Notes: a model not told the origin generated them from the sequence alone. DNA of 50,662 nt from Oscillospiraceae bacterium (GCA_009779295.1 WREN01000001.1:1-50662); one strand, 5' to 3'. Shown: positions 4,914 through 40,330, counted from the stretch's first letter. A program made the numbers and translations.

Positions 4914-5384
4914 TTGCAGCACGAACAGGTAAACGAGCGAACCGTGGCGCTCTCGATCAAAGGCGTGAAACTGACGGGGCGTATGCTGGCGAAAGCGATG
5001 CAGGCGTTCATGAAAAAGGCGCGCGAACCTACGCACAAACATGGCAAACAGAGCCTGAGATCATTGACGAAACACGGCGCGAGCCTTGCCGACATAGAAA
5101 TCTCCGGCGACAACATCGGTACATTCAAGCGGACGGCGCGCAAGCACAACATAGACTTCGCGCTCAAACGCGATAATTCATCCGACCCGCCGAAATGGCT
5201 GGTGTTTTTCAAAGCGAAAGACGACAAGGCTCTGCAATCAGCGTTCAACGAATATTCAAAGATAACGCTGAAGCACAAAACGAAAAAGCCGTCCATGCTT
5301 ACTAAGCTGAGAAATTTCAGGGAACTCGCTAAAAACGCGCTGACTCCCGCAAAAAGCCGCAGACGTGGAGGCCATGAACTATGA
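4914..5384 (+). CDS. PcfB-family (DUF3801) conjugation protein
   Basis: It sits immediately upstream of the coupling protein and overlaps it. WLVFFKAKDDKALQSAFNEY is typical of PcfB. Confidence 0.7.
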   Translation: MQHEQVNERTVALSIKGVKLTGRMLAKAMQAFMKKAREPTHKHGKQSLRSLTKHGASLADIEISGDNIGTFKRTARKHNIDFALKRDNSSDPPKWLVFFKAKDDKALQSAFNEYSKITLKHKTKKPSMLTKLRNFRELAKNALTPAKSRRRGGHEL

Positions 5385-7195
5385 ACACGGACAAGATAAA
5401 GAAGTTTGTACTCCCCAACCTGCCCTATGTGATGTTGTTCTGGTTTTTCGGCAAGATGGGCGAATCCTACCGCCTGACGCCGGGCAGCGACGTACTAAAA
5501 AAGATGATGGGCAGCCTTACCGGGCTAAATATCGCTATGGCAAAACCGTTGCCGTCGTTTGACCCGTTCGATATTCTTGTAGGGCTGGCAGGTACGGCAA
5601 TAGTATTTCTCTTTGTATGGTACAAGAAGAAAAACGCAAAAAAATGGCGTAAAGATATAGAGTACGGTTCTGCTCGTTTTGGCAACAAAAAAGACATCGA
5701 ACCTTTTGTTGATCCAAAGCCTGGCAACAACATCATCCTGACCGCAACGGAGAGCCTTACGCTCAACGGCAGGCCGAAAAACCCGAAATTTGCGCGCAAT
5801 AAAAACGTGCTCATCGTGGGTGGTTCCGGTTCAGGCAAGACCCGCTTTTGGCTCAAACCCAATCTCATGCAGCTTCACAGCTCGTATTGTGTTACCGATC
5901 CGAAGGGAAGCATCCTCGTCGAGTGCGGTAAACTGTTACAGGACAACCAGTACGAAATAAAAGTGCTGAATACGATTGATTTTACCAAATCAATGAGATA
6001 TAATCCGTTCGCGTATATCCGTTCGGAAAAAGACATCCTCAAACTCGTGACGGCGCTCATCCAAAACACGAAGGGCGAAGGAAAAGCCGGAGAAGATTTC
6101 TGGGTGAAGGCCGAGACCCTGCTCTACTGCGCCCTAATCGGGTATATCTATTTTGAAACGGGCGAAGAGGAACAAAACATGAACTCACTCGTGGAAATGA
6201 TAAACGCGATGGAAGTGCGCGAAGAAGATGAAATGTACAAAAACGCGGTGGATTATCTGTTTGATGAACTGGCGGCGAAAAGCCCTCAGCACTTCGCCGT
6301 AAGGCAATATGAAAAATATAAGCTGGCGGCGGGCAAAACCGCGAAATCGATCCTAATTTCATGCGGAGCGAGGCTCGCGGTGTTTGATATAAAAGAAGTA
6401 CGCGACCTGATGGCATACGATGAAATGGAACTCGACACCATCGGCGACCGCAAAACCGCTCTGTTCATCATCATAAGCGATACCGACGATACATTCTCGT
6501 TCATCGCCGCCTTGATGTACAGCCAGTTATTTAATTTACTCTGCGATAAGGCGGACAACGAATACGGCGGACGGCTGCCAGTCCACACACGTTTCCTGCT
6601 GGACGAGTTTGCAAATATCGGCAAAATTCCGCGTTTCGAGAAACTGATAGCCACCATCCGAAGCCGCGAGATTTCAGCCTGCGTCATCTTGCAGGCGCAA
6701 TCTCAGCTTAAAAGCATTTATAAGGACGACGCCGAAACGATCATAGGCAATATGGATACGGTGCTATTCCTCGGCGGCAAGGAAAAAACTACTTTGAAAG
6801 ACCTGAGTGAGAGCCTCGGAAAGGAAACCGTATATATGCTGAACAACAGCGTCAGCAAGGGTAATTCCCCGTCGTACAGTCAGAACACGCAGAAGCTCGG
6901 CAAAGAACTCATGTCCATCGACGAAATCGCCGTGATGGACGGGGCAAAGTGTATCTTGCAAGTGCGGGGCGTCAGACCGTTCCTTTCGGATAAATTCGAT
7001 ATAACTAAGCACAAGAATTACTGTTATCTTTCCGATTCAGACCCGAAAAACGCTTTTGATATAGGCAAATACGTACTGCGGAAGTTGAAAATAAAACCGG
7101 ATGAGTGGTACGAATACTTCGAGTACGAGCCAACGGAGGAAGGACTGCCGGACGAAGCGTTTGACGATTTCCCGGTAGACCTCGAACCAATTTAG
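5381..7195 (+). CDS. type IV secretion coupling protein (VirD4/TraG family)
   Basis: N-terminal TM segments, Walker A VGGSGSGKT, Walker B-like LLDEFANIG, 604 aa. Confidence 0.9.
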   Translation: MNTDKIKKFVLPNLPYVMLFWFFGKMGESYRLTPGSDVLKKMMGSLTGLNIAMAKPLPSFDPFDILVGLAGTAIVFLFVWYKKKNAKKWRKDIEYGSARFGNKKDIEPFVDPKPGNNIILTATESLTLNGRPKNPKFARNKNVLIVGGSGSGKTRFWLKPNLMQLHSSYCVTDPKGSILVECGKLLQDNQYEIKVLNTIDFTKSMRYNPFAYIRSEKDILKLVTALIQNTKGEGKAGEDFWVKAETLLYCALIGYIYFETGEEEQNMNSLVEMINAMEVREEDEMYKNAVDYLFDELAAKSPQHFAVRQYEKYKLAAGKTAKSILISCGARLAVFDIKEVRDLMAYDEMELDTIGDRKTALFIIISDTDDTFSFIAALMYSQLFNLLCDKADNEYGGRLPVHTRFLLDEFANIGKIPRFEKLIATIRSREISACVILQAQSQLKSIYKDDAETIIGNMDTVLFLGGKEKTTLKDLSESLGKETVYMLNNSVSKGNSPSYSQNTQKLGKELMSIDEIAVMDGAKCILQVRGVRPFLSDKFDITKHKNYCYLSDSDPKNAFDIGKYVLRKLKIKPDEWYEYFEYEPTEEGLPDEAFDDFPVDLEPI

Positions 7196-7215
7196 CAAAC
7201 CGTAATATCTATTAA

Positions 7216-7251
7216 GCCGCTCTCTCCAAAACGGAGGGGGCGGTTTTTTTC
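7216..7251 (+). terminator. rho-independent terminator
   Basis: GCCGCTCTCTCC (7216-7227) pairs imperfectly with GGAGGGGGCGG (7233-7243), followed by T7. Confidence 0.7.
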
Positions 7252-7300
7252 GTTTCAGTAAAAACAAAAATATATTAAAAATAACGGAGGAAAACACACC

Positions 7301-8119: not shown

Positions 8120-8132
8120 CTATTGTCCAGCA

Positions 8133-8165
8133 GGGGTTTCGTAAATTACACGAAACCCTTTCATA
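8133..8165 (+). terminator. rho-independent terminator
   Basis: GGGTTTCG (8134-8141) pairs with CGAAACCC (8151-8158), followed by TTT. Confidence 0.6.
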
Positions 8166-8343
8166 TATATAAAGGCAGATAAAAACGTTATCAAAGTGCG
8201 CGGCAAAATAAAAAATAAAATAAAAAGGAGCAGCCGGAAAACTGAATACGCGCACGGACAAAAACCCGCATATCGCGGTTTTTTTGTTTGAAAAGCGTCA
8301 ACAAAGACGCGGATTCGTTCGTTTTTCCGGCAAAACACACACT

Positions 8344-9422: not shown

Positions 9423-9437
9423 AATAAAGGATTGGTG

Positions 9438-10388
9438 ATGAAAATAAATACGGCAAAGACTATTTTCGGCGACGTACAACCTGGCGATTGGGTCATAGCC
9501 GCCGGTAATAACGATTACCGTTACCTAATCGGCATGGTGACGGAGATAGACAAGCCCGGAACGCCGGATCACGATACTGAAAACGAAACCGACGATATTC
9601 ACGTTGATTTTACGGTTTTTGATTATCCGCAGGAACGCATTTCGGAAATAGAAAATCATTTCACCGGCTTGTATGGCGAACCAAAAATATTTGATGAATT
9701 GGCGATAGACAACGTTATTATGGCTCCCGATATGCTGATTCGGATAACGCATTTGGGTCAGGACGAAATTTCATTTATTGGTAACCTCCGTAAAAACTGC
9801 GAATCTTTCTGCAACTGCTTTCCAGGAGGCGTCAATTCACAGAGCGAAAAACACGCGGAACTCATAGAGCGCGTGAACAAAAACCTCGCGGACTACCATG
9901 ATTTTTTGGAGAGTTTCGGTACAAGGGAACTTATCGGCATGGCGGGGAAAATCAACGCCATGTCCGACGCTCATTTATACATAACATCGTGGCATAGATT
10001 TGACGATGGCGAACTGGATGTTCTGTTACAATTTCAAAATCCGTTAGAAATTGTCGCGGACGAGTGGTGTGACCGCTGTTCCGATTTGAGCGATATGAGT
10101 TTTACAGTAGCACTCATCGAACGGCAGAAAGACGATTTTTTCGCGACATACTCTTTAATGAAAGATTTGAAAGCGCCGCAGGACGCAAGCTCAGATATTT
10201 TAGCGCGAAAAATACCGGATAAACCCGCCGAAGTTCGCACCCCCATTGAAAAAGCGGAACAAACCGCCGTGAAGCCAAAACAAAGCCTTGCGGATAAACT
10301 GCAAGCGGCGAACAAAAAAGTAAAAGCGCAGGACACACAAAACAATAATAAACAATTACAATCCCGTAAACGGGAAGAAAGAGGCTAA
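9438..10388 (+). CDS. conserved ICE protein of unknown function
   Basis: AAAGGA lies 6 nt upstream of ATG 9438. The C-terminus carries the KPKQSLADKL tail motif. Confidence 0.6.
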   Translation: MKINTAKTIFGDVQPGDWVIAAGNNDYRYLIGMVTEIDKPGTPDHDTENETDDIHVDFTVFDYPQERISEIENHFTGLYGEPKIFDELAIDNVIMAPDMLIRITHLGQDEISFIGNLRKNCESFCNCFPGGVNSQSEKHAELIERVNKNLADYHDFLESFGTRELIGMAGKINAMSDAHLYITSWHRFDDGELDVLLQFQNPLEIVADEWCDRCSDLSDMSFTVALIERQKDDFFATYSLMKDLKAPQDASSDILARKIPDKPAEVRTPIEKAEQTAVKPKQSLADKLQAANKKVKAQDTQNNNKQLQSRKREERG

Positions 10389-10392
10389 AAAA

Positions 10393-11103
10393 ATGGCAGA
10401 TACAAAATTAGACGTCAGGGTATACCCCATAGACGAACCGAAAGGCAATACAAAAGCGTTCGCCAGCGTAGGAATAGATGATACGATCGCCATACGCGGT
10501 GCCCGCGTCGTGGAGGGTGAAAAGGGTATGTACGTGACTATGCCGCAGTCAAAAGACAAAGAAAATAACTACCACGACATCGCGTACCCACTGAGCGGCG
10601 ACCTGCGTAAGGAAATAAGCGCCGCCGTACTTGCCGAATATGAAAAGATGGCAAACATACCGCCGAATCAACGCGGGTATGAAGCACCGGACATGAGCGC
10701 GGCGAACAACATAAAAGCGCAGGATATACAACTGGACATTCGCGTATACCCGCTCGAAGAACCGAAAGGCAGTACCAAAGCGTTCGCCAGCGTGGGTATA
10801 GATGACATGGCCGCTATACGCGGAATCCGCGTCGTCGAAGGCGAGAAAGGTTTGTTCGTGACCATGCCGCAGTCAAAAGACAGCGAGGGCGAATACCACG
10901 ACATAGCGTTTCCCTTGAACGGCGACCTGCGGAAGGAAATAAGCAAAGCGGTGCTTAAAGAGTACGAAACCGCCGAAAAAACCGTTGACCGCAAGCCTTC
11001 GCTCGCGGAAGGACTGCGCGACGGAGCGGCGAGAGCCGCCGAACAAACCACCGCGCCGAGAGCAGCCGCGGCAAAGTCGCACGGGTCGGGGGTGTTGGAA
11101 TGA
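10393..11103 (+). CDS. tandem-duplicated SpoVG-family nucleic-acid-binding protein
   Basis: Two about 85-aa copies of VRVYP(I/L)(D/E)EPKG(N/S)TKAFASVGIDD..AIRG.RVVEGEKG..VTMPQSKD...YHDIA(Y/F)PL.GDLRKEIS.AVL.EYE. Confidence 0.85.
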   Translation: MADTKLDVRVYPIDEPKGNTKAFASVGIDDTIAIRGARVVEGEKGMYVTMPQSKDKENNYHDIAYPLSGDLRKEISAAVLAEYEKMANIPPNQRGYEAPDMSAANNIKAQDIQLDIRVYPLEEPKGSTKAFASVGIDDMAAIRGIRVVEGEKGLFVTMPQSKDSEGEYHDIAFPLNGDLRKEISKAVLKEYETAEKTVDRKPSLAEGLRDGAARAAEQTTAPRAAAAKSHGSGVLE

Positions 11104-11750
11104 GCGTATCACCGCATAACGAAAGCATAGAGCCGAAAATGAAAGACGTGCGCAGGGACATCATTTTCCGTGATGAGGACTATAAGGAAAAATTCAGGAT
11201 CAAAGACGGCGACAGTATCAAGATCACCGTCGCTTATGACGGCGAGGAACTGATACGCAAATGCCGCTGGCTCGATGAAGCGCACATGAACGTCGGCTCT
11301 ACTTGTTATCATATGGATGAATTCATGGAAAAGCAAATGCGGATCGGTAATAAATATGAATCAATTCCGGATCAGGAACCGAAACTTGACGTTGTAGTCG
11401 CCGAACCGGGTAAACCGCCGCGCGACGCCGTTATACCTATGACATCCGCCGCCCTGCGTGAAATAACCGGAGGCGAGCCGGAAATAATCGGCAAGGATAA
11501 ATATTCGGCTTCTGTTGAAGGAAAAAACGGCAACGGCACGGTTGTTATCTGCGGTATAAGCGAAAACTATCTGACCAGTCTGCATCCTTATGTGGCGCAA
11601 ACTAAAAAACACGAGCTTGCGGCAGCGCAGGAAAATTTCAAACCGACGTTAGCCGACCGGCTTGAATCGGGCAAGGCGAAAGCGGCGGAGCATAATTCGG
11701 CGGCAAATAAACCGCCGCAAAAGCATCGCCATACGGAAGTGGGTGGGTAA
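11100..11750 (+). CDS. conserved ICE protein of unknown function
   Basis: 216-codon ORF that overlaps the upstream stop. The C-terminus carries the KPTLADRL tail motif. Confidence 0.6.
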   Translation: MSVSPHNESIEPKMKDVRRDIIFRDEDYKEKFRIKDGDSIKITVAYDGEELIRKCRWLDEAHMNVGSTCYHMDEFMEKQMRIGNKYESIPDQEPKLDVVVAEPGKPPRDAVIPMTSAALREITGGEPEIIGKDKYSASVEGKNGNGTVVICGISENYLTSLHPYVAQTKKHELAAAQENFKPTLADRLESGKAKAAEHNSAANKPPQKHRHTEVGG

Positions 11751-12158
11751 ATGGCATTCGTAAACGTACCTAAAGACCTCAATAAGATCAAGAACAAGGC
11801 GTTGTTCAACCTAACCGTCAGGCAGCTTGTGTGTTTCGGCGCGGCGGCGGCAATCGGGATACCGGTATATATCCTCACCCGCGTCGCAATCGGCGGCACG
11901 GGCGCTGCTTTATTGATGATCGGGTTGATGCTGCCCTGCTTCTTCTTCGCCATGTTTGAGAAGGACGGCCAACCCGCCGAAAAAGTCCTGCGGAACTATA
12001 TCCGCACCCGTATATACTTTCCGGGCAAGCGCCCGTACAAAACGGAAAACCTATACGAAATACTGGAAAAGGAGGGAAAGAGCCTTGCAGAACAAGAAAC
12101 AGCAGCGACGCCGGACGCCGCAGGCAGTATCGGCAAAAGGAATCAGTCATATAAATAA
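11751..12158 (+). CDS. PrgI-family (VirB3-like) T4SS membrane protein
   Basis: MAFVNVPKDLNKIKNKALFNLTVRQLVCFGAAAAIG plus two TM segments, immediately upstream of VirB4. Confidence 0.8.
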   Translation: MAFVNVPKDLNKIKNKALFNLTVRQLVCFGAAAAIGIPVYILTRVAIGGTGAALLMIGLMLPCFFFAMFEKDGQPAEKVLRNYIRTRIYFPGKRPYKTENLYEILEKEGKSLAEQETAATPDAAGSIGKRNQSYK

Positions 12159-16964: not shown

Positions 16965-17458
16965 TTGGCAAAGGGCTGAAAAAGATAGCGATGCTGGTAC
17001 TGCAAGATCAGGTATGGGGACGTGTCACGGCAAACCGCGCGGCGAAACGCACGACATGGTTTTACCAAGATGAATTTCACCTTATGCTGAAAGAGGAACA
17101 GACGGCGGCGTATTCGGTGGAAATCTGGAAGCGTTTCCGCAAATGGGGCGGAATCCCCACAGCTCTTACGCAAAACGTGAAGGACTTGTTGGCGTCAAGG
17201 GAGATCGAAAACATCTTTGAGAACAGCGACTTCATATATATGCTGAACCAAGCGGCGGGCGACCGGCAGATTTTGGCGAAGCAGTTGGGCATTTCCACGC
17301 ACCAGCTATCGTATGTAACGCACAGTAACGCGGGAGAAGGATTGCTTTTCTATGGTAACACGATCATCCCGTTCTCTGATAAATTCCCGAAGGACACAGG
17401 TGAAATCTATGGGCTGCTTACGTCGAAGCCCTCGGAAATGCAGGAGGTGAGCGGTTAG
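16965..17458 (+). CDS. VirB4-family T4SS ATPase, exon 2 (contains Walker B)
   Basis: The in-frame continuation is GKGLKKIAMLVLQDQVWGRVTANRAAKRTTWFYQDEFHLML (Walker B DEFH), ending in TAG at 17456-17458. Confidence 0.8.
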
Positions 17459-17580
17459 TGAGCCTGCATGACAAATTGGAAGCGGCAAAGGAAAAAGCTG
17501 TTTTACGTGATTTTGAAACGAAAAAACCGGAGCGCGGCCAGTCCCGTTCCGGAAAAATAAAGGAGAATATCATATTATGA
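17458..17580 (+). CDS. possible 40-aa micro-ORF, translationally coupled on both sides
   Basis: Its GTG overlaps the virB4 TAG (TAGTG) and its stop overlaps the next ATG (ATGA). AGGAGG lies 10 nt upstream. The product is MSLHDKLEAAKEKAVLRDFETKKPERGQSRSGKIKENIIL. It is below the ORF-track length cut-off. Confidence 0.3.
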   Translation: MSLHDKLEAAKEKAVLRDFETKKPERGQSRSGKIKENIIL

Positions 17581-21268: not shown

Positions 21269-21317
21269 AATATCTATCAAACAATATATCATATATATGG
21301 AAGGAAGAAAACAATAA

Positions 21318-22126: not shown

Positions 22127-22176
22127 CAAAATGACGTATGAAGAAATCACAAAGCGCATGGAGGTGACGTAAAAGA

Positions 22177-24612
22177 ATGACAAACACATCGAAAGTCAAA
22201 GAGATAGTAGCAAAACTGGAACAGGGCGTAAAAGACCTGTTCATCAGCGGGCGGTACGCGGAATATTTAAAAACCCTGTCTAATCTCCATAAATACAGCA
22301 CACGGAACATCATGCTCATCCATATGCAGAGAGCGGACGCGACGTTTGTCGCCGGGTATAAGGCGTGGCAGACAAAATACAGACGTCACATAAAAAAAGG
22401 TGAAAAGGCAATGGATATACTCGCCCCCATACCATTTACCAAACGCGAGGAGAAGGAAAAGCTCGACCCTGACACCAAGCTGCCGATAATCGGCGAGGAC
22501 GGTCTGCCCGTTATCGAATATACCGAACGGCAGTTAGCGAAATTCACGGTAGTACAGGTGTATGACGTGTTACAGACGGACGGTAAAGCAATGCCGACGA
22601 TGAAACTTACTCAAGACCTGAAAGGAAATGTGGAACAGTACGCGGCGTTCATGGACGCGCTACGCGCCGTATCACCCCTGCCTATCATGTTCGAGGCGAT
22701 GCCGGAAAACATGGACGGCGAGTGCCGTTTCGGTGACAATATAGCGATCCGGGCAGGAATGAGCGAGATACAGACAGTAAGTGCGCTCATACATGAAATA
22801 ACCCACGCAAAGCTGCACGATTTATCGCTTTTGGTTGACAATGAAGGCAACGCTGTAACCAAAGACCGTCGCACAGAGGAAGTAGAGGCCGAATCCGTTT
22901 CATACGCGGTATGCCAGTATTTCGGAATAGAAACGGGCGCGAACAGTTTCGGATACCTCGCTGAATGGAGCAACAACCGGGAATTGAAAGAACTCAACGC
23001 TTCGCTTGAAACAATACGCAAAACGGCGGCTGACCTGATAGACGCCATTGACGGGAAATTCCGTGAAATCGCCAAAGAACGCGACATAAACTTTGTCATC
23101 GGCGAAGCGCAGGGTGAATTAGAGGAAACGAAATTATCCACTATGGAACAGGCTCCTGTTCCGGTACAGAAATCCGATGACGATAAAAAGCAAACCGAAA
23201 CCACAGTCGAACATAGCAATTATATAAGATTCGCTGAGTTGTTCCCTCAAACGGCAAGCGGCGAATACAGTTACCTGCGGCTTGAAGCGGGGGGCGGTTT
23301 TGAACCGCTGTCTCTTGAATGGATCGGCGAAAATCGAATATCCGTTATGCACACATATACGCTGAACGGCGACCTGTGCTATGACCCGATGGTCGTGTTT
23401 GAGGTAAACAAAGAAGCGGGAACGATGACCGCTGTGGAGTTTGAGCAAAGCATACCGCCGCTGTATCAAGTTGTGGACGAGGACGGAAACGGACGCAGTG
23501 TTGACGGCAACGGGCGGGAAATCAACGTCAGGAGATTGCAGGCGTCGATAAACGAATTTACCGAACAATGGCTTAAAAACATAAGCGGGCAGGGATATTT
23601 ACCGGTGATAGCGACAATGGAAATACATGACGAGGACACGCGGATAAATTTTGACGCGGACGGCAACCCAATAACACCGGAATCCGAAAAAGACGCCGGA
23701 AAAACAGAAATATTTAATGAAACAGAATCGGACGGCAACCCGTCAGAACCGGAATTGACATTACCCGACCCATCCATCAGTTATTCCGAAATGAATCTGT
23801 ACGGCTATGCATGGAAGGGGATACTCCCGCTTACGCAGAGCCGCGCAACGGAACTGTTCGACGCCGACCACACCGTTTATCTGCTCTACCCGGACAATAC
23901 CGAGGCCATGATATTTGACCGCAGCGAAATAGTGAACCACGACGGTATATTCGGTATTGAGCAGTCGGAATGGGTAACGTCGCCGGAATACGCGGCGACG
24001 AAAGCCGAAACAAAGAACCGCGAGGGCAGCCGCGAAGCGGAATTGCTCTACGGAAGCGGCAACAAATTCGGGATTTATCAGATAAAAGACGAAGCCGGTT
24101 TGCGTGATTACCGTTTCGTATCAACAGAAGAACTCCGGGAACAGGGTCTGGAAGTTGTAAGGGAAAACTATGAACTTGTATACGCGGCAGCCTTTGATGA
24201 ACGGATCGAACAGCCAAAAGACGTATATCCTGTTCTTAATAAACTGTATGAAACATTCAATATATCTCACCCCGAAGATTACACAGGGCGTTCTGTTTCG
24301 GTCAGCGACGTTATCGTACTGAAATATGATAACAATATTTCGTCGCACTACGTTGACAACGCTGGATTTACCAGGCTTGCAGGTTTCCTCGGAGATGAAA
24401 AGCAACCGGTATTGATCGTTGATAAAAATTTGCCCGACAAAGTATCGAATCCGCCTGAAGTCTATTTCCAATATGGGAACAAACCGGGCGACGAACGGCC
24501 TGCCGTCCCGAAAGGTAAACCGTCTCTAATGGAGCGGCTTGCTGAAAACAAAATAAAGGCGGAGCGTCAGGGGCAGCCCGACACGCAAAAACCAAATGAA
24601 CGGGAGGTGTAG
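22177..24612 (+). CDS. ArdC-like anti-restriction protein: ssDNA-binding N-domain, HExxH zincin domain and YodL-like domain
   Basis: YSTRNIMLIHMQRADATFVAGYKAWQ...GEKAMDILAP (ArdC-N/DUF1738 type), ALIHEITHAKLHD (HExxH), and the C-terminal FGIYQIKDEAGLRDYRF...VSVSDVIVL (YodL-like). Confidence 0.8.
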   Translation: MTNTSKVKEIVAKLEQGVKDLFISGRYAEYLKTLSNLHKYSTRNIMLIHMQRADATFVAGYKAWQTKYRRHIKKGEKAMDILAPIPFTKREEKEKLDPDTKLPIIGEDGLPVIEYTERQLAKFTVVQVYDVLQTDGKAMPTMKLTQDLKGNVEQYAAFMDALRAVSPLPIMFEAMPENMDGECRFGDNIAIRAGMSEIQTVSALIHEITHAKLHDLSLLVDNEGNAVTKDRRTEEVEAESVSYAVCQYFGIETGANSFGYLAEWSNNRELKELNASLETIRKTAADLIDAIDGKFREIAKERDINFVIGEAQGELEETKLSTMEQAPVPVQKSDDDKKQTETTVEHSNYIRFAELFPQTASGEYSYLRLEAGGGFEPLSLEWIGENRISVMHTYTLNGDLCYDPMVVFEVNKEAGTMTAVEFEQSIPPLYQVVDEDGNGRSVDGNGREINVRRLQASINEFTEQWLKNISGQGYLPVIATMEIHDEDTRINFDADGNPITPESEKDAGKTEIFNETESDGNPSEPELTLPDPSISYSEMNLYGYAWKGILPLTQSRATELFDADHTVYLLYPDNTEAMIFDRSEIVNHDGIFGIEQSEWVTSPEYAATKAETKNREGSREAELLYGSGNKFGIYQIKDEAGLRDYRFVSTEELREQGLEVVRENYELVYAAAFDERIEQPKDVYPVLNKLYETFNISHPEDYTGRSVSVSDVIVLKYDNNISSHYVDNAGFTRLAGFLGDEKQPVLIVDKNLPDKVSNPPEVYFQYGNKPGDERPAVPKGKPSLMERLAENKIKAERQGQPDTQKPNEREV

Positions 24613-24615
24613 TTT

Positions 24616-24846
24616 ATGGATAACGATATTTTTACCGTAGAAGAAGAAAACTTTTTATGTATATTTGACATAAGCGGGCGCGGCGCGCTGATACAAGACA
24701 TTGCCGCCGCTGTGCCCTATTTCGATGACCCGGAAATGCGCGTGATCGCGGAAACCATCCTGCGTAAATTAGACGGTATGACCGACGCGGAATTTTCCGC
24801 ACTTATCTTCTCCCCCATATATTACAATGATGAAACCGAGGTGTAA
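24616..24846 (+). CDS. transposon-transfer assisting (TTRAP) family protein
   Basis: FTVEEENFLCIFDISGRGALIQDIAAAVPYFDDPEMRVIAETILRKLDGMTDAEF is typical of this small family. Confidence 0.75.
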   Translation: MDNDIFTVEEENFLCIFDISGRGALIQDIAAAVPYFDDPEMRVIAETILRKLDGMTDAEFSALIFSPIYYNDETEV

Positions 24847-24852
24847 CACCTG

Positions 24853-27800: not shown

Positions 27801-30800
27801 CGGGGATAACACCACGGTTGTTTCTTTGCTTGTCAATCAAGATGAAATAGACGCGCAGCTGCTGAATATTTCAGACGAAAACAAAACCCGGATTATGGCG
27901 CAATTCGCAATTAATCCGCGTTCGCGCGAAGCCGTACAGCTTGTACGCGAAATATATGGCGGCATTAAGGAAACGCTGGCGCTGTCATGGACTGCCTTGC
28001 ATATACAAATAGCGGAACTCGCGGAGGCAGGACGGTTTTCGATTATTGAAAGCAAGCCGACGCCGTATGAAGATTATCTGGCGATAAAATCCGCAGACCC
28101 CGATAATATCGTATTCTATCAAATCGGCGACTTTTTTGAGGTATATAACGGGGACGCTGAAACAGCGGCCCGTGTGCTTGACATATTACTCACGTCACGA
28201 AGCGCCGCCGGTCAAACGGAACGAATCCCTATGATCGGAATACCGTTTAACAGGCTGCCCGACTATACTAATAAGCTGTATGAAGCGGGTTATGGCATAA
28301 CCATATCTTCACTTAACAATGACGGTATCCGCGAGATAACGAGCCTTCCGCCGAAAACCAGAGAACAGGCAGCTTATATACCGGAACCGGAAATAACTGT
28401 GTCTGTACCGCAATATACAGTTGGCGACAGGTTTGAATACAACGGCAAGCCGCATGAGATAGACCGGGTCGGTGATTTTATCAGGTTACGGAACATCGGT
28501 ACGCCATCAGAATATCCCATTTTCGATTATATGTCCGTATCGCGGCAGGATTTTGAACGCAGGCTGTCTGACGGCGAAATCGTTATTACCACATCGGAGG
28601 ATGTTTCTATAGAACTGGCCGAACTTGATTTTGATACCGCGGCGCAGACTGTTTTGGAACGTGTCATGCAGGACGCTGACTTTGCGGAAACACTTGAAAA
28701 CGCGCAAAGCCGGGGCGCGCTTCGCAACCCGTTGAATACGGCTCTGGACAAGATTATGAATGACCACGGACAGGATGAGACGCATATACTCCGCGCATAT
28801 CATAATGACGACGACTTCAACGACAGGCTGTTTGATTTCGTGTACCGCCGGTCATGGGAGACAAAAACGGCGCGTGATGCGGCTGTACCTGAACCAATAA
28901 CGGTAACGGAACAAACCGGCATTGAAACACCTGTACGGGATATACCCATATCGCCTGACGTTCCGCCTCCCGTGTTCTTCGTGGATTGGGACGCGGCGCA
29001 GTACGACGTCGCAAATCTTGATAATGCCAACAGCGACCTCGTTGATGTGCTGGATAACGGCCTGATAGGGCAATCGGACAAAGAGACCGTTTTATCGATG
29101 CTGGCGAACGGAAGCACAAATGATGAGATAACCGCTTTAATTGCGGATGTGTACAGTAGGCAAATCGACACGATGACTCTGACGAGCGGCGAAACAGCCG
29201 ATTATTCGGTCATGCCCGACGGTATAGTCATAGACATACTCGACCGTTTCAATACGAAACTGTTTTTCACATGGGCTGACATAGCGCCGGTAGTCCGCGC
29301 ATTGGCGGTGGGATGGCAAGCCGGTCAAACCACCGAACTTGAAATTCCCGTTACGGCTGAAGATAAACCTCAAACAAGCTACATCAAAGGACAGCGTATC
29401 GTACTTGACCTGAGTGAGAAACTCCGCGATTCATTCTCATTTGTACACGACGCGCCGTTTATTGCTGGTGAGTTCGTTATCGACGACATCGACGGCGATG
29501 ATATAACTGTCAGCGCCTCGTATATTGACAGCAATGGCGAAAACGCGCGGCTTACCGTGAACCTGACCCGCAGTGAAGCGGAGCGGTATACGGTAAAACC
29601 TGTCGCTGATAAACTGTATGACGAAATATCTCCTTCCGATGAAACCACAACTGCATATTATTTGCTCCGCTATCCGAACGGCATTGGCGCGGGCGCGGTA
29701 TTAAGTTACGCCGATCTCGCGTTAATAAAAGAACAAGCAGACGCTTATGTTATTTGCGCCGAAGCTTGCCATTTGTCAGGTGACGATATGGCGCGGTATA
29801 ACATAGAGTTCCGCAAAATGCCGCGTGACTGGTATCTGCTGCCCGAAGTTGTACGGGAACAAATACACGAGATAAAACCGGAATACGAAAACCAATGGAA
29901 CGATCTATATACCAATCTGGAATTAACGGGTGAATTTGAACCGTTAAGCGAAAAACTGCGCTTAGAAGCAAGCCAAAATTTCCGTATCACCGACGATCAT
30001 CTCGGCGAGGGCGGCGCTAAGACCAAATTCCGGTATAACCTCGACGCGATACATGTACTTAAAGATATTGAGTTTGAAAAACGCGCGGCTACGCCTGACG
30101 AACAGCAGATACTCTCGCGCTACGTCGGCTGGGGCGGACTGCCGCAGGCATTCGACCCTGACAACAAGCAATGGGAAAATGAATACCTCGAACTTAACGC
30201 CGCACTCACCCCGGAGGAATGGGAATCGGCGCGGGCAAGCACCGTCAACGCGCACTACACTACCCCGACCGTTATCAGGGCTGTGTACGAAACCGTAGAG
30301 CGGCTCGGATTCAGGACAGGCAATATCCTCGAACCTTCATGCGGTATAGGTAATTTCTTCGGACTGTTGCCGGAGAGCATGAGCAACTCAAAACTGTACG
30401 GCGTGGAACTGGACAGCGTTACCGCACGGATCGCAAAACAGCTATATCCGAAAGCCAACATCAAAGAAATGGGTTTTGAGAAAACCGATACACCCGACGC
30501 CTTTTTCGACCTCGCCGTCGGTAACGTGCCTTTTGGCGATTATGGCATAGCCGACAAAAGGTATGATAAACACCATTTCAGCATCCATAACTATTTTTTC
30601 GCAAAAACGCTTGACCAGGTGCGTCCGGGCGGCGTCATCGCGTTCCTGACAAGCAAATTCACATTAGATGAAAAAAATCCGAATGTTCGGAAGTATATAG
30701 CGCAGCGCGCGGAACTGCTCGGCGCTGTACGGCTTCCGAACAATGCTTTCCTCAAAAACGCGGGTACGGAAGTAACGAGCGACATAATCTTCCTGCAAAA

Positions 30801-33800
30801 GCGCGCCCGTCCCATCGACGCCGAGCCTGATTGGGTACACCTCGGGCTGACCCACGGCGGCATATCCGTCAACAAGTATTACTCGGACAACCCCGAAATG
30901 ATACTCGGAACAATGGCTCCCGACGAACGTATGAACAGCAAATTCGGTACTGACAGCTTCACTGCTTGTTTACCCATAGAAGGAGCGGATTTAGCCGAAC
31001 AGTTAAAAACCGCATTGCTTAACATACAAGGCCAATACACCATTGAGGAATTGGACGACATTGAAGGCATTGACAACCACGCTATACCCGCCGACCCGCG
31101 CGTCAGAAACTTCAGTTACGCGCTCGTGATCCCGGCTGATAAATCGAATGAAGAAGCTGAAGGGCTGGCATATATTACGAAAATCGGCGATGATACGGTT
31201 ATTGGCGCTGGCCGGGTATATTACCGCGAGAACTCGATGATGTACCCGGTGGAATTGCCGGCGGCGACGCTGGAGCGCATCAAGGGTATGATCGCCCTGC
31301 GCGACTGTGTGCATGAACTCATCGATCTACAGCTTGACGAATGGACAGGCGAAGCGGCGATAAGAGCGAAACAAAATGAATTGAATATCCTGTACGACCG
31401 GTTCAACGCCGAATACGGGCTGATTAACTCACAGGTGAATAACCGGGCGTTCAACGCGGATTCCGCGTATTACCTGCTCTGCTCACTCGAAATACTGGAC
31501 GAGGACGGACAGCTTGAGCGCAAAGCCGATATGTTCACTAAACGCACAATCAAACAACGAACAGTCATCGAACACGTTAATACGGCAAGTGAAGCGCTCG
31601 CGGTTTCACTCTCCGAAAAAGCTAAAGTGGATATTGAGTATATGGCCGGTTTGACCGGATTTACGAACGACAAGCTCATTGGTGACTTAGAGAACGTTAT
31701 CTACTTTGATTTCGGCAACCCAAACAAATCCCTTCCGCCGTTCGACCCTGACAAAATGAAGATGTACGAAAAGTTCCCGCTTGTCACCGCCGAGGAGTAC
31801 CTCTCAGGCAATATCCGTGAAAAACTCTTTAAAGCTGAACGGTTCAATGAAACTTTCGGCGATGAGGTTCATGGCGTAGATACCACTATAAACGTGTACG
31901 CTCTGAAAACTGCCATGCCCAAAGACCTTGACCCGTCCGAAATAGCCGTGCGGCTCGGCTCCACTTGGATAGCGCCGGAGTATGTGCAGCAGTTTATGTA
32001 CGAATTGTTAAGAACAAACTGGCGTATGCGGGAAAGCCATCAGGTCAAGCACCATGAGTACACCGGCGAATGGCAGGTAACGGGCAAAGGCCGTTCGTTG
32101 TACAACGACATACTCGCTAACGTGACCTACGGTACAAACCGCATGAACGCCTATCAGATCATCGACGACACCCTCAACCTCCGCGATGTACGTGTATACG
32201 ATCACGTGAAGGATGCGGACGGCAAAGAGAAGCGCGTACTCAATAAAAAGGAAACGACGCTCGCGCAGCAGAAGCAGGAGCAGATCAAGCAGGCGTTCAA
32301 AGACTGGATATGGCAGGAGCCGCGGCGACGGCAGACGCTCGTTAAATTGTACAACGAACGGTTCAACAGCGTCCGTCCGCGCGAATACGACGGCAGTCAC
32401 ATCACTTTTTCTGGCATATCGCCGGAGATCACCCTGCGTAAACATCAACTGAACGCGATAGCGCACGGACTATACGGCGGTAATCTGCTGCTCGCCCATG
32501 TCGTCGGCGCAGGCAAGACTTTTGAAATGGTCGCTATTGCAATGGAGGGCAAACGCCTCGGGCTGTGCCATAAGTCATTGATGGCCGTGCCTAACCACCT
32601 GACCGAGCAATGGGCGGGCGAGTTCCTGCGGCTTTACCCTACGGCGAATATACTTGTGGCGACTAAAAAAGACTTTGAAATGCGCAACCGAAAAAAATTC
32701 TGCGCCAAGATAGCCACCGGCGACTACGACGCTGTTATCATCGGACATTCGCAGCTTGAAAAGATACCCATGTCAAGTGAGCGTCAGGAACGGCTCATAC
32801 GTGAACAGATATGGGAGATAGAGCAAGGCATAGAGGAATTAAAACGAACGCAGGGTGAACGCTTCTCTATCAAACAGCTTGAAAAGACGAAGAAGTCGCT
32901 TTTGGCGCGGCTGGAAAAACTGCTCAATGCAAAAAAACGCGACGACGTTGTTACTTATGAACAATTAGGAGTAGACAAGCTGTTCATTGACGAAGCGCAC
33001 GGCTTCAAAAATTTGTTCATGTATACGAAAATGCGGAACGTTGCGGGGCTTTCGACTTCAGAGGCGCAGAAATCCAGCGACTTGTTTATGAAATGCCGGT
33101 ACATGGACGAACTGACAGGCAACAAAGGCGTAGTTTTCGCCACGGGTACGCCGATCAGCAACAGTATGACCGAAATGTACACTATGCAGCGGTATCTTCA
33201 ATTTGATACCCTCGCGGAAAAAGGCTTAACGCACTTTGACAGTTGGGCGTCCATCTTCGGAGAAACGCAGACTTCGATAGAACTCGCGCCGGAGGGTACG
33301 GGCTACCGCGCGCGGACGCGATTCGCGCTGTTTCATAATTTGCCCGAACTAATGTATATGTTCAAAGAAGTGGCCGACATACAGACGGCGGATATGCTCA
33401 ACCTGCCCGTACCGGAAGCGAAATATGAGAATGTCATCGTACAGCCGTCCGAACGGCAAAAGGAAATGGTGCAGGAACTGTCAAAGAGAGCCGCGCTTGT
33501 CCATTCAGGGCGTGTAGACGCGAAAATCGACAATATGCTCAAAATAACGACTGACGGGCGCAAGATCGGGCTTGACCAGCGGCTGATCAACCCCCTGCTC
33601 TCCGACTTCGAGGGCAGCAAAGTCAACGCCTGCACCGATAATGTGTACCGCATATGGGACGAAACAAAAGACGGAAAACTTACCCAACTCGTGTTCTGCG
33701 ACTTTTCCACGCCGAACAAGAACGGGCGTTTCAACGTCTACGACGACGTCAAAACCAAATTGTTGGAACGCGGCGTACCTGAACACGAGATAGCTTTTAT

Positions 33801-35085
33801 CCACGACGCGGACACCGAAACGCGAAAAAAAGAACTTTTTGCCAAAGTACGTCAGGGTAGTGTACGTATACTGTTCGGCTCTACATTCAAAATGGGGAGC
33901 GGGACAAACGTGCAGGACAGGCTCATCGCCATACACGACGCCGACTGCCCCTGGCGGCCTGCCGATCTGGAACAGCGCGCCGGCCGTATCGTCAGGCAGG
34001 GCAATAAGAATGAAGAGGTGCAGATTTACAGGTATGCGACAAACGGCACTTTTGATTCGTACCTCTGGCAGACGGTGGAAAAAAAGCAGAAATTCATTGC
34101 GCAGATAATGACTTCTAAATCTCCCGTGAGAAGCTGCGAGGATGTGGACGAAACCGCCCTCAGTTATGCTGAAATAAAAGCGCTCTGCGCGGGCAACCCT
34201 CTTATTGCCGAAAAGATGAACCTCGACGTGGAAGTGGCGAAACTGCGTATGCTGAAATCCGAACATCAGAGCCAGCATTACCGTTTGGAGGACAACCTGA
34301 TGAAATATTACCCGCAGCAGATAACAGCGGTCAGGGAACGTATATCGGGTATAGAAAAAGATATTATTATGTACAACGAACAGAACGAAAAGTTCACGGA
34401 TGCGCGGCCTTCGCTGGACGGAACGGCATCGACCGCTGCGGCGAAATTCGCCGGTATGACAGTCAACGGCGTGGAATATATGGAAAAGGAGCCCGCTGCC
34501 AAAGCCCTGCTCGAAGCCTGCAAGGGCGTTACCGAAAAGAAAGATTTACCTGTCGGTAAATATATGGGATTCGATATGAGCCTGCAATTCGACGGGTTTC
34601 ACAAGACGTTCAGCGTCCTGCTGCGCGGGAATATGAGTTATACGACGGAACTCGGAACGGACGCTTTCGGCAATATCACCCGTATCAACAATACGTTGGC
34701 GGATTTACCTAAAAAACTCTCCGGAGCGAAATCACAGCTTGATGCGTTGTACCAGCAGCAGGAAGCGGCGAAGCAGGAGCTTGAAAAACCTTTTGCGCTG
34801 GCTGACGAACTGGCTGAAAAAGAAGCGCGGCTCGCGCTCTTGAACTCCGACCTGAACATAGACGGCGACGGCGGATTCGACGTGTTGAACGATGACAGCT
34901 GGGATGACGGAGCGGAGGAATACGAATTGCCTGACCCTGACGATGAAGAACCTGATGACGAATACGAACGGCAGACAGCCTCCGCGAAAAGCGCGAAGCC
35001 TTCTTTATTGGAAGGGCTGCGTTCGTTCAACCCTGAACGGCAATCTCCGGTATCAGGTAAAAAATCCCCGGAACTCGACATCTGA
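24853..35085 (+). CDS. polyvalent conjugative-element protein (3410 aa): ArdC-N-like module, repeated polyvalent-associated domains, MutS-domain-I-like module, N6-adenine DNA methyltransferase, SNF2/DEAD-like helicase
   Basis: One frame is open for 10.2 kb. MTase motif I EPSCGIGNFFG (~30.33 kb) and motif IV GNVPFG (~30.52 kb). Helicase motifs GAGKTF (~32.51 kb), FIDEAHGFKN (~32.99 kb) and QRAGRIVRQGN (~33.98 kb). Confidence 0.9.
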   Translation: MATKLQFYSVVAERAAKEVIAGSENWQSFLTVAARLYKYPFPDQLLIYAQRPDAIACAPIETWNESFNRWVRRGSKGIALIDDSGDRPHLRYVFDVSDTEPSQYRSRPVQLWEMRQEHREPVLEYLSGIYDDLGDTLADSFRSIARQLAREYYIDNASEIRYRAEDSFLEDFDDFNFGVAFEGALTNSVAYTLMSRCGFDTSDYFDDDDFRYIYEFNTPDMVYALGTAAGELSQQVLRDIELVIKKYERQQAAERSVTNERTQDERQSPDILPERGLSSSRPDTGRTAGIGGTVRQVREDTQSVSEGKPDDDLQYDAAEGNVVSASAGNGGTGDREVETGNEDIDVTGQPARQSGRSDGLDGGDERPEGTGGGTGTERIGLRLENQTYSQVGNSAISETLSTSSVTLDEVDSILRDGGNEKNSVLRIAAYFAKDMAQVENADFLRREYLLGQWGRNFESGGKGYQFGSRQTSVWFNEDGIRIGRGKSAKLATDYALITWEQTAERVKQLYDAGMYVSHDVLDEALYNESMERADDVKEIYSNISRGLNDIQYELKKAMTKEQQETVKDDWKIRRYLIRGLTELGNTAEKALFGEAKVSTDEIMRLYNETFRLSEEIPQEWEFGGSHTETVEIIAELLRDKGTISGNEIRQGIGYNELSEYNIILTRLREDLSAFEAEPDAPIHFYRNPHRVLSDLEKAGLPVYGFPAAEYTPTGYTRFITDDEVDRYLTGGSHYNESKLRILSNFLHDHTPKEQQDFLKNEYGHGGGSWVDGGWYGADPGKGITLKRSGCDDVNLNWNQAARRIENLIRGGRYISRDELGRIFNYERLMLARSINNFYYNMPDEYQRPFAKELDFYNPKEDEWAALNGLLYDPEKIDALLGEMRRIYDNTPEEDRYYENRKTGYERLTAFRDGRYTLFPGLETLPDPDATATRPQTQIPFAPFVPPSAVQNEQLTFFDFEQPPLLTSVEEQQAILEKAAETSAGDNTTVVSLLVNQDEIDAQLLNISDENKTRIMAQFAINPRSREAVQLVREIYGGIKETLALSWTALHIQIAELAEAGRFSIIESKPTPYEDYLAIKSADPDNIVFYQIGDFFEVYNGDAETAARVLDILLTSRSAAGQTERIPMIGIPFNRLPDYTNKLYEAGYGITISSLNNDGIREITSLPPKTREQAAYIPEPEITVSVPQYTVGDRFEYNGKPHEIDRVGDFIRLRNIGTPSEYPIFDYMSVSRQDFERRLSDGEIVITTSEDVSIELAELDFDTAAQTVLERVMQDADFAETLENAQSRGALRNPLNTALDKIMNDHGQDETHILRAYHNDDDFNDRLFDFVYRRSWETKTARDAAVPEPITVTEQTGIETPVRDIPISPDVPPPVFFVDWDAAQYDVANLDNANSDLVDVLDNGLIGQSDKETVLSMLANGSTNDEITALIADVYSRQIDTMTLTSGETADYSVMPDGIVIDILDRFNTKLFFTWADIAPVVRALAVGWQAGQTTELEIPVTAEDKPQTSYIKGQRIVLDLSEKLRDSFSFVHDAPFIAGEFVIDDIDGDDITVSASYIDSNGENARLTVNLTRSEAERYTVKPVADKLYDEISPSDETTTAYYLLRYPNGIGAGAVLSYADLALIKEQADAYVICAEACHLSGDDMARYNIEFRKMPRDWYLLPEVVREQIHEIKPEYENQWNDLYTNLELTGEFEPLSEKLRLEASQNFRITDDHLGEGGAKTKFRYNLDAIHVLKDIEFEKRAATPDEQQILSRYVGWGGLPQAFDPDNKQWENEYLELNAALTPEEWESARASTVNAHYTTPTVIRAVYETVERLGFRTGNILEPSCGIGNFFGLLPESMSNSKLYGVELDSVTARIAKQLYPKANIKEMGFEKTDTPDAFFDLAVGNVPFGDYGIADKRYDKHHFSIHNYFFAKTLDQVRPGGVIAFLTSKFTLDEKNPNVRKYIAQRAELLGAVRLPNNAFLKNAGTEVTSDIIFLQKRARPIDAEPDWVHLGLTHGGISVNKYYSDNPEMILGTMAPDERMNSKFGTDSFTACLPIEGADLAEQLKTALLNIQGQYTIEELDDIEGIDNHAIPADPRVRNFSYALVIPADKSNEEAEGLAYITKIGDDTVIGAGRVYYRENSMMYPVELPAATLERIKGMIALRDCVHELIDLQLDEWTGEAAIRAKQNELNILYDRFNAEYGLINSQVNNRAFNADSAYYLLCSLEILDEDGQLERKADMFTKRTIKQRTVIEHVNTASEALAVSLSEKAKVDIEYMAGLTGFTNDKLIGDLENVIYFDFGNPNKSLPPFDPDKMKMYEKFPLVTAEEYLSGNIREKLFKAERFNETFGDEVHGVDTTINVYALKTAMPKDLDPSEIAVRLGSTWIAPEYVQQFMYELLRTNWRMRESHQVKHHEYTGEWQVTGKGRSLYNDILANVTYGTNRMNAYQIIDDTLNLRDVRVYDHVKDADGKEKRVLNKKETTLAQQKQEQIKQAFKDWIWQEPRRRQTLVKLYNERFNSVRPREYDGSHITFSGISPEITLRKHQLNAIAHGLYGGNLLLAHVVGAGKTFEMVAIAMEGKRLGLCHKSLMAVPNHLTEQWAGEFLRLYPTANILVATKKDFEMRNRKKFCAKIATGDYDAVIIGHSQLEKIPMSSERQERLIREQIWEIEQGIEELKRTQGERFSIKQLEKTKKSLLARLEKLLNAKKRDDVVTYEQLGVDKLFIDEAHGFKNLFMYTKMRNVAGLSTSEAQKSSDLFMKCRYMDELTGNKGVVFATGTPISNSMTEMYTMQRYLQFDTLAEKGLTHFDSWASIFGETQTSIELAPEGTGYRARTRFALFHNLPELMYMFKEVADIQTADMLNLPVPEAKYENVIVQPSERQKEMVQELSKRAALVHSGRVDAKIDNMLKITTDGRKIGLDQRLINPLLSDFEGSKVNACTDNVYRIWDETKDGKLTQLVFCDFSTPNKNGRFNVYDDVKTKLLERGVPEHEIAFIHDADTETRKKELFAKVRQGSVRILFGSTFKMGSGTNVQDRLIAIHDADCPWRPADLEQRAGRIVRQGNKNEEVQIYRYATNGTFDSYLWQTVEKKQKFIAQIMTSKSPVRSCEDVDETALSYAEIKALCAGNPLIAEKMNLDVEVAKLRMLKSEHQSQHYRLEDNLMKYYPQQITAVRERISGIEKDIIMYNEQNEKFTDARPSLDGTASTAAAKFAGMTVNGVEYMEKEPAAKALLEACKGVTEKKDLPVGKYMGFDMSLQFDGFHKTFSVLLRGNMSYTTELGTDAFGNITRINNTLADLPKKLSGAKSQLDALYQQQEAAKQELEKPFALADELAEKEARLALLNSDLNIDGDGGFDVLNDDSWDDGAEEYELPDPDDEEPDDEYERQTASAKSAKPSLLEGLRSFNPERQSPVSGKKSPELDI
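25628..26002 (+). CDS. tnpV: TnpV-family protein gene nested out of frame inside the polyvalent ORF
   Basis: 124-aa ORF in a different frame from 24853..35085. AAAGGAG at 25613-25619 lies 8 nt upstream of the ATG. The product carries TnpV-like landmarks GDYLLPDL, AYLKENR, LFPHL, DDPMGWTAAMN and AEELVLNELVYA. Confidence 0.65.
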   Translation: MNEPKMNDNRLTYSLNGDYLLPDLILDEPPELAEPLGRYARIRKAYLKENRTMTYNTMLLKETLFPHLRETEELATARLKQVMKILMSRDSLPDKADDPMGWTAAMNALKAQAEELVLNELVYA

Positions 35086-40182: not shown

Positions 40183-40214
40183 TTACGCCGTCAAATTTAG
40201 AACGCCCCCATAAA

Positions 40215-40274: not shown

Positions 40275-40330
40275 ATATTTTTTTAAGCTCTACGAAAAAA
40301 ACACTTAATTAAATAATGTGAAATCGAAAT

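Follow-up and report, generated by a model that had tools for sequence, protein, structure and literature searches.

What leads seven proteins with little else in common to end in the same way? The question is raised by a 50,662-nucleotide stretch of DNA from an Oscillospiraceae bacterium (GCA_009779295.1, WREN01000001.1:1-50662; hereafter the window), which carries conjugation genes of the type known from Tn1549 and C. difficile CTn elements (CD1107/1110/1112/1115 families). The initial annotation had noted a K-P-S-L-type motif at a similar distance from the stop codon in seven proteins of this integrative and conjugative element (ICE), and had proposed that the tail beginning at the motif is a type IV secretion system (T4SS) translocation signal. 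The analysis described here shows the tail to be a conserved C-terminal module shared by many protein families, and suggests that it may indeed recruit its carriers to the transfer machinery. The seven tails are as follows.

5286..5381, + strand: tail of PcfB (DUF3801; gene 4914-5384), KPSMLTKL followed by 24 residues, ending in GGHEL
10272..10385, + strand: tail of a 318-aa protein (9432-10388; weak DUF3848), KPKQSLADKL followed by 28 residues
10993..11100, + strand: tail of the tandem SpoVG protein (10393-11103), KPSLAEGL followed by 28 residues, ending in GVLE
11640..11747, + strand: tail of a 216-aa protein (11100-11750; weak DUF3846), KPTLADRL followed by 28 residues
18321..18425, + strand: tail of the DUF6674 protein (17577-18428), KPSLAEKL followed by 27 residues, ending in GIEV
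24517..24609, + strand: tail of the ArdC-N/zincin/DUF6908/YodL protein (22177-24612), KPSLMERL followed by 23 residues, ending in EREV
34996..35082, + strand: tail of the 3410-aa MutS-I/methylase/SNF2 helicase polyvalent protein (24853-35085), KPSLLEGL followed by 21 residues, ending in ELDI

All seven motifs were found where the initial annotation had placed them, each with 21-28 residues left before the stop. A six-frame regular-expression scan of the window located the motif exclusively in long + strand open reading frames (ORFs), the other frames and the opposite strand being empty. With a strict expression, KP[ST][LM]x[EDT]xL, the 33 window proteins (15,328 residues) gave six matches, against 0.006 expected from residue shuffles and 0.008 from composition; the probability that six random matches would all land 21-28 residues from the end, an 8-residue band, is about 4e-11. 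In leave-one-out tests with profile hidden Markov models (HMMs), every held-out tail ranked first or second among some 900 ORFs. The shared tail is real, and chance is excluded. Codons underlying the motif vary synonymously from copy to copy, indicating that selection acts on the peptide and not on DNA or RNA.

Some finer points of the initial annotation stood only in part. The carriers had been described as unrelated. For most pairs the match is confined to the tail, which provides the best hit for several pairs when included, and similarity vanishes once the last 45 residues are removed; the exception is the pair formed by the ArdC-YodL and polyvalent proteins, which share an ArdC-N-like domain and a weak YodL-like region. 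The tendency to end with an acidic and then a hydrophobic residue holds for four of the seven tails (HEL, IEV, REV, LDI), the other three ending in VLE, EVGG and EERG. As for the 318-aa protein, the motif is present with a two-residue insertion (KPKQSLADKL) relative to the canonical KKPTLADKL of an orthologue fragment. Two possible degenerate tails were rejected: the VirB4 end (...SKPSEMQEVSG) is a look-alike, as its orthologues all end in ...TTKPxEV, and the GKSLAEQE segment of PrgI was discarded because PrgI orthologues carry no tail.

The anatomy of the tail was drawn from 39 non-redundant examples. It spans about 35 residues, with consensus [KR]-P-S-[LIVM]-x-x-[KR]-L-x-x-[AGF]-K-x-x-[AV]-[AK], continues into a linker rich in K, A, E, R, Q and P, and closes with [KR]-K-x-G-x-E-[LI]-COOH, the usual form of the end being G-x-E-[LIV]. 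From 21 to 32 residues (median 26) separate the 8-mer from the stop; an acidic-then-hydrophobic pair occurs within the last four residues in 23 of the 39. K and A each account for 16% of the part that follows the motif, E for 12%, R for 9% and P for 6%, and the net charge of the tail averages +3.8, being positive in 34 of 39 cases. The P-S-x-x-E sequence reads as a putative helix N-cap with a capping box. An AlphaFold2 model of PcfB, weak overall (mean pLDDT 60) and used for the helix/disorder pattern of the tail and not for fold searches, shows coil up to the Pro-Ser pair, then a 15-residue helix at 128-142 (pLDDT ~71) and a disordered end. In the eight tails of the window the helix is weakly amphipathic and hydrophilic overall, with a hydrophobic moment of 0.27-0.46 and a mean hydrophobicity of -0.05 to -0.30. 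By prediction, the tail is a bipartite module: a short helix capped by Pro-Ser, and a basic linker with its terminus.

Conservation of the tail in orthologues was found for all seven carrier families. It is maintained over its full length in 120 PcfB homologues (64-80% identity), where 24 residues separate motif and stop in 83 of 87 cases, and is kept on every PcfB from 80 genome loci (38-72% identity), where the motif drifts to RPSLRQKL, RTSVRQKL or KPSIRKKL. Even the PcfB of Streptococcus agalactiae, at 26% identity, still ends in KESIHKNIKKFKELAK...EQSL. The orthologue fragment of the 318-aa protein (P0124) has the canonical tail KKPTLADKLQAANEKVKAQ...KREER, and a homologue of the 216-aa protein in locus L010 reads KGSLLDELEATQKEV...VAEI. 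SpoVG orthologues in L012-L015 and L022, together with fragment P0125, retain the tail; DUF6674 orthologues in L011-L013 carry KPSIL[KR]NL...E[VA]SL, and the YodL/ArdA polyvalent homologues of Tn1549 and of a Monoglobus element carry KPSIRAQL. Among 120 homologues of the polyvalent helicase, at least 73 end in [KR]PS[ILVF]L[DE]x[LI][RK] plus 22-26 residues, an undercount in that forms with F as the phi residue escaped it. A Dehalobacter-type subgroup of these helicases stops just short of where the tail of the others begins.

A side observation concerns the very last residues. In the related element of Dehalobacter sp. TBBPA1 (CP162385.1, 347448-371068; locus L087), five of 16 proteins (helicase, Toprim, ParB, a 99-aa protein and PcfB) end in ...ER-COOH and eight of the 16 end in R; the KPS helix motif is missing from this helicase. 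L011-L015 and L018-L021 likewise have tails with GPER or GQER ends. The extreme C-terminus may itself act as a signal.

The tail is gained and lost as a unit. In related elements it is also present on further families (ArdA, LPD1, DUF3560 and long Toprim primase-like proteins), and at least 12 families with no similarity to DUF3801 carry it. Similarity among the ArdA, LPD1 and DUF3560 proteins of locus L014 is confined to their last 40-55 residues (BLAST E ~1e-6). Toprim proteins of L002, L003, L006 and L008 are long (~510 aa), their additional C-terminal domain finishing in the tail; the short DUF3991-Toprim form (335 aa), encoded at 3882-4889 on the + strand of the window and in L007, has none. 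Likewise, ArdA from the Gram-negative Moellerella ends directly after the ArdA domain, whereas clostridial ArdA proceeds into the tail. Tn1549 and the Monoglobus element have exactly three tailed proteins each: PcfB, an ArdA/ArdC-N/YodL polyvalent protein and the adjacent protein of ~315 aa. No tail was found on the structural proteins or relaxases of these two elements, or on non-ICE neighbours, including those in L088.

How strictly is the tail tied to C-termini, and to this kind of element? A first, 30-column HMM overfitted the window and was almost exclusively a PcfB detector; it was replaced by a 19-column profile and by regular expressions, with reversed motifs and internal segments as controls. 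Across six-frame ORFs totalling 1.15 million residues, all 23 matches to the strict expression lie 15-40 residues before a stop, and the reversed motif gave two matches in total. A broader expression placed 74 of 80 matches 15-45 residues from the stop, as compared to one of 10 for the reversed motif. The 19-column HMM scored 55 C-terminal 60-mers at 8 bits or more, against none of 3,969 internal 60-mers and no reversed C-terminus. The initial annotation implied that non-ICE proteins should lack the tail, and this was borne out in 168 kb of Pusillibacter faecalis housekeeping DNA (1,006 ORFs), which gave no regular-expression match and no HMM score above 6.2; in the same record, a Tn1549-like ICE encodes a tailed PcfB. 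Seven of the 33 window genes are tailed versus none of 150 annotated background genes (Fisher's exact p = 3.5e-6), the background being one replicon from one related species. Loci were fetched with 10-kb flanks and carriers lying 12-17 kb from PcfB were missed, making the counts for L016-L080 underestimates.

The carriers are soluble proteins. None of the seven in the window has a transmembrane segment (maximum 19-residue hydropathy at most 1.49). VirB6, Maff2, PrgI, M23, CD1107 and VirD4, all with hydropathy above 1.9, have no tail; the absence of the tail from channel components and relaxase, as noted by the initial annotation, was confirmed.

Broader searches with the seven-tail alignment returned little. 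A word-indexed homologue search yielded one match among 37 candidates, and a profile search of 1.84 billion proteins only four matches at E <= 0.001. Three of the four are orthologue fragments; the fourth, P0123, is unrelated, a coiled-coil repeat protein whose EHSLVDKL repeats are internal. The seven-tail profile holds too little information and is therefore unsuited to a database-wide census. A genome scan anchored on the M23 hydrolase alone picked up patterns in low-complexity stretches and gave zero confirmed loci.

Tails of different families resemble each other more within an element than between elements (mean 8-mer BLOSUM score 21.0 versus 15.8, permutation p = 0.0004). As the window tails had been found by their mutual similarity, the test was rerun without the window (p = 0.0002), and with the L014 trio counted as a single tail (p = 0.013); it rests on few independent elements. 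The effect is seen at the K/R preceding the proline (identity 0.70 within elements, 0.30 between) and at the phi residue (0.62 versus 0.15), and the lineages have forms of their own: KP[ST]L in the window, [KR]PSIR in Tn1549 and Monoglobus, RPS[VA] in L014 and KPSI in L011-L013. This pattern suggests that the tails may co-evolve with one shared, element-specific receptor.

Is the tail something already known? No Pfam or NCBIfam model matches it as a stand-alone family, and no description was found in the published literature searched. The only models that take it in are those of DUF3801 and DUF6674, at their C-terminal ends. PcfB matches PF12687 (DUF3801) with E = 4e-34, and the last ~25 positions of that model (~105-129) span the tail, making it a family-wide trait of PcfB. 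The tail is not specific to DUF3801, as it differs from the family in occurring elsewhere; the best E-value of the other window tails against the DUF3801 model is only 0.18. DUF4316 was rejected as a catalogued name for the tail, since it maps internally (898-935 in the 1306-residue YodL protein of Tn1549, the tail of which is at 1273-1306) and matches no window tail. Among 18 tails scanned for known C-terminal signals, none has the Agrobacterium arginine consensus (R-x7-R-x-R-x-R), the basic residues being mostly Lys; none has a beta-clamp-binding motif (QL[SD]LF or QLxLx[LF]), an LPxTG, SSB (single-stranded DNA-binding protein) tip or EEVD motif, or an ssrA-like [LA]AA end, the C-terminal logo being K-K-x-G-x-E-L; and only two fit the Legionella Dot/Icm E-block (at least three acidic residues at -10 to -17).

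The tail does share the generic properties of C-terminal T4SS signals, lying within the last ~50 residues, being net positive and residing on soluble proteins. VirB/VirD4-type signals, such as those of Agrobacterium VirE2, VirF and VirD5 and of the F, pKM101 and RP4 "conjutome", are likewise extreme C-terminal, unstructured, net positive and portable between unrelated proteins, and are recognized post-translationally by a machine that depends on a coupling protein. Many proteins are transferred in the F, pKM101 and RP4 systems (PMC8406263, PMC11288057), where positively charged C-termini drive transfer of Cre and cloned net-positive C-termini generally suffice (PMC11288057); conjugative substrates include primases and SSB-like, anti-SOS or anti-restriction proteins (PMC8406263, PMC11288057). 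These signals are compositional and have no common sequence, unlike the present tail with its helix-cap motif, fixed spacing, G-x-E-phi end and Lys-rich character. The tail also comes from a Gram-positive system, where protein translocation has barely been studied: according to a December 2025 review, nearly all known functions of Gram-positive T4SSs are DNA transfer, protein export being an open question (PMC12857230). Parallels of another kind are the Bartonella BID domain with its charged tail, the Xanthomonas XVIPCD and the Legionella E-block read by IcmSW/DotM, each a module on unrelated substrates that co-evolves with a receptor in the machine; however, BID and XVIPCD are folded domains of at least 100 residues, whereas the present tail has ~35 and a putative receptor.

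The larger carriers fall into a described class. Iyer, Burroughs, Anand, de Souza and Aravind (2017) predicted delivery of polyvalent proteins by way of the conjugation apparatus and proposed the N-terminal ArdC-N domain as a delivery "header", describing no C-terminal motif (PMC5512222). Two window carriers, as well as those of Tn1549 and Monoglobus, fit the polyvalent type (ArdC-N/ArdA header, MPTase/M78, LPD, YodL, methylase-SNF2). The element shared here differs from the header in being C-terminal and in occurring also on small, single-domain, non-polyvalent proteins. In the window, the ArdC-YodL protein (22177-22430) and the 3410-aa polyvalent protein (24853-25100), both on the + strand, share an N-terminal ArdC-N-like domain (residues 15-82 versus 13-81, E = 7e-6), and so possess both the header of Iyer et al. 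and the C-terminal tail. The Tn1549 product annotated as "YodL domain-containing protein" (pMG2200, L081 22948-26868) is a tailed protein of seven domains, among them ArdA, ArdC-N, M78 peptidase, LPD25, YodL and DUF4316, with two different anti-restriction modules within one tailed polypeptide.

If the tail is read by the machinery, what reads it? Two products of the window are candidates.

5381..7195, + strand: VirD4-type coupling protein, candidate receptor (Pfam T4SS-DNA_transf, TraG-D_C)
24616..24846, + strand: TTRAP, 76 aa, alternative candidate adaptor (net charge -13, adjacency)

VirD4, or a complex built on it, is the most likely receptor, as we infer from the following. Its last 30 residues (7103-7192, + strand) form a conserved acidic-aromatic stretch (EYFEYE...DDFPVDLEPI) with a net charge of -12. 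Of 33 type IV coupling proteins (T4CPs) from related elements (genes of L005-L080), 28 likewise have a C-terminus of negative net charge. The VirD4 terminus recalls the partner-binding C-termini of TraD, TrwB and DotL; T4CP tails are known to recruit partners in the TrwB-TrwA, TraD-TraM and DotL-IcmSW pairs (PMC12857230). TTRAP is alike to secretion chaperones in size and charge, and adjoins large tailed polyvalent proteins in three elements, namely the window, Tn1549 (L081 27820-28020) and Monoglobus (L088 15966-16172); charge and adjacency make it a candidate adaptor or receptor.

A plausible scheme for a translocation signal can be outlined. The Pro-Ser cap would start a short helix of amphipathic character (S-phi-x-[DE]-x-L-x-x-[AG]-K), followed by ~20 basic, disordered residues and the G-x-E-[LIV] end. 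The helix would dock on a receptor in the coupling complex, while the basic linker and the G-x-E-phi terminus would provide a second contact at a fixed distance. In this way a single element-encoded receptor could read the tail on many unrelated soluble proteins, possibly through the acidic-aromatic C-terminus of VirD4 or the acidic TTRAP, and recruit them to the secretion channel; recognition would presumably lead on to translocation. Anti-restriction, methylase-helicase, primase-like and ssDNA-binding proteins made in the donor would then enter the recipient along with the DNA. The carriers (ArdA, ArdC-N, methylase-helicase, Toprim, SpoVG and several of no known type) match what is expected of proteins useful in the recipient before expression of its newly acquired genes. 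The initial annotation had emphasized that carriers include classes acting early in the recipient, and this extends to other elements, where ArdA, ArdC-N, methylase-helicase and primase-like proteins are tailed, all classes known or predicted to be delivered (PMC5512222, PMC8406263). Every refutation test that could be run in silico came out in favor of the translocation-signal proposal. We put at roughly 0.5 the probability that the tail is a machinery-specific C-terminal recruitment signal with the full chain through to translocation. The stronger statement, that among Gram-positive conjugative T4SSs it is the first portable translocation signal to be defined by sequence, read by the VirD4 complex and co-evolving with it in each lineage, is offered tentatively, at somewhat less than even odds.

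Several points weigh against a translocation signal. PcfB and the DUF6674 protein are conserved members of the transfer operon that are tailed and have no known role in the recipient. The relaxase, the sole certain substrate, is tailless, as are the MobQ relaxase and neighboring products of a mobilizable element inside the Pusillibacter ICE. In the Dehalobacter-type subgroup, where PcfB and a T4CP are both present, the helicase has no helix motif. Charge complementarity between tail and T4CP is a correlation only, the PcfB model (pLDDT 60) is of low confidence, and recombination that swaps tails inside an element could partly account for their similarity. Tail-receptor binding and transfer of the carriers are both hypothetical.

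The tail could instead be a donor-side docking motif that tethers accessory proteins to a hub (the PcfB core, VirB4, the T4CP, TTRAP or the relaxosome) and so assembles a cytoplasmic transfer complex at the channel, with no export of the carriers. The C-terminal position, the restriction to the element, the soluble carriers and the co-variation all fit docking equally well, and the tails on PcfB and DUF6674 favor it: both are conserved operon components, PcfB is translationally coupled to VirD4 at every locus, and tails on these two proteins suit a role in assembly. There is precedent in T4CP-centred complexes with docked auxiliaries, such as DotL with DotM/N/Y/Z and IcmSW (PMC12857230). What tells against docking is that no clear task at the donor channel suggests itself for ArdA, ArdC-N or an orphan methylase-helicase, their enrichment among carriers pointing to the recipient. 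We regard pure docking as rather unlikely, a serious competitor nonetheless; docking and export may also coexist.

The remaining alternatives fare worse. Large carriers hold MPTase-PolyVal/M78-like peptidase domains, Iyer et al. propose that polyvalent proteins are proteolytically processed (PMC5512222), and a constant distance from the C-terminus would suit a protease that recognizes an exosite plus the terminus. From this one might imagine a propeptide cut by the zincin/M78 domains or by a host protease, or else a mark for timed degradation. Sites for polyprotein processing would be expected between domains, whereas the motif occurs once per protein and only at the end; PcfB and SpoVG, small and single-domain, have nothing to release, and an ssrA-like LAA end, as a degron might show, is found in none of 18 tails. 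This makes processing or degradation improbable. The K/A-rich composition and mean charge of +3.8 bring to mind a histone-H1-like, K/A/P-rich tail that binds or condenses nucleic acid, convergently acquired to aid binding of the transferred strand, and most carriers with a recognizable domain do bind DNA or RNA. Such a tail would need neither the invariant S/L helix cap nor the fixed 21-32-residue spacing nor the G-x-E-phi end, and would not be expected to co-vary position by position within elements; moreover, five of 39 tails are not positive, and ArdA, which is tailed, mimics DNA instead of binding it. We consider this idea very improbable. Finally, the short helix predicted after Pro-Ser, with hydrophobic residues at i and i+4 and flanking basic residues, might be an amphipathic membrane-targeting helix that brings proteins near the channel. 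Its moment of 0.27-0.46 and negative mean hydrophobicity in all eight window tails are well under those typical of such helices, and within-element co-variation would be left unexplained, so that membrane targeting seems a far-fetched solution.

How conjugative T4SSs choose their proteins is only poorly understood, even for the Gram-negative models with their mostly compositional signals; a short, conserved and modular tail would make substrate choice in Gram-positive systems directly testable. Tn1549 spreads vanB vancomycin resistance and its relatives abound in gut Clostridia. If the tail is a translocation signal, the set of proteins that an element injects could be read from sequence across the Tn1549 family, including the vanB transposon itself. 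It would also explain how anti-restriction proteins encoded deep within the transfer operon, and not in a leading region, could do their work ahead of any expression from the incoming DNA, and the common signal-receptor contact would offer a single target against the establishment of many elements.

The eighth tail of the window belongs to a putative mini-ORF.

17458..17580, + strand: tail-only mini-ORF of 40 codons, (M)SLHDKLEAAKEKAVLRDFETKKPERGQSRSGKIKENIIL; begins SLHDKLEAAKEKAV..., ends ENIIL

This sequence was the top non-training match of the leave-one-out HMMs (9-12 bits) and is unique among 20,654 small ORFs of the window and fetched loci. A GGAGG lies at 17442-17446, the GTG start overlaps the VirB4 stop and the TGA overlaps the DUF6674 ATG. 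The mini-ORF could specify a free-tail competitor or regulator, or could be the remnant of a deleted gene.

Genes of the window are nearly all on the + strand. Annotation with Pfam identified, in the 5' part, ParA, ParB, DUF3991-Toprim, PcfB (DUF3801), VirD4, Rha, Maff2, VirB6/TrbL_2 and the 318-aa protein; next, tandem SpoVG, the 216-aa protein, PrgI and a VirB4 interrupted by a group II intron; then DUF6674, M23 hydrolase, CD1107-like, the ArdC-N/zincin/DUF6908/YodL protein, TTRAP and the 3410-aa MutS-I/methylase/SNF2 polyvalent protein; and, in the 3' part, NikA-MobC, a MobA/VirD2-type relaxase, actin-like ParM, a tyrosine integrase and two cohesin/dockerin proteins. The full set of PcfB-VirD4-Maff2-VirB6(TrbL_2)-PrgI-VirB4-hydrolase-CD1107-YodL protein-TTRAP, plus MobC and a MOBP-type relaxase, is thus present in the expected order, and annotation of Tn1549 (on pMG2200) and of the Monoglobus element shows the genes in the same order. 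The nearest relatives are in Oscillospiraceae and other Clostridia, many being termite-gut metagenome-assembled genomes; a megablast of the region against PLSDB gave zero matches.

The group II intron occupies 14122-16990 (ORF 14863-16782, with reverse transcriptase, maturase and HNH domains) and splits VirB4 into 11956-14121 and 16991-17458; transfer competence would require splicing. The VirB4 orthologues of L008 and L011-L015 are contiguous and intron-less. ParA/ParB and actin-like ParM occur in the element alongside the integrase. Directly 3' of the tyrosine integrase, at 39046-48937 on the + strand, are the genes for the two cohesin/dockerin proteins, large (1927 and 860 aa) and of the cellulosome type, which are either cargo of the element or part of the flanking chromosome of a fibre-degrading, Ruminococcus-like host.

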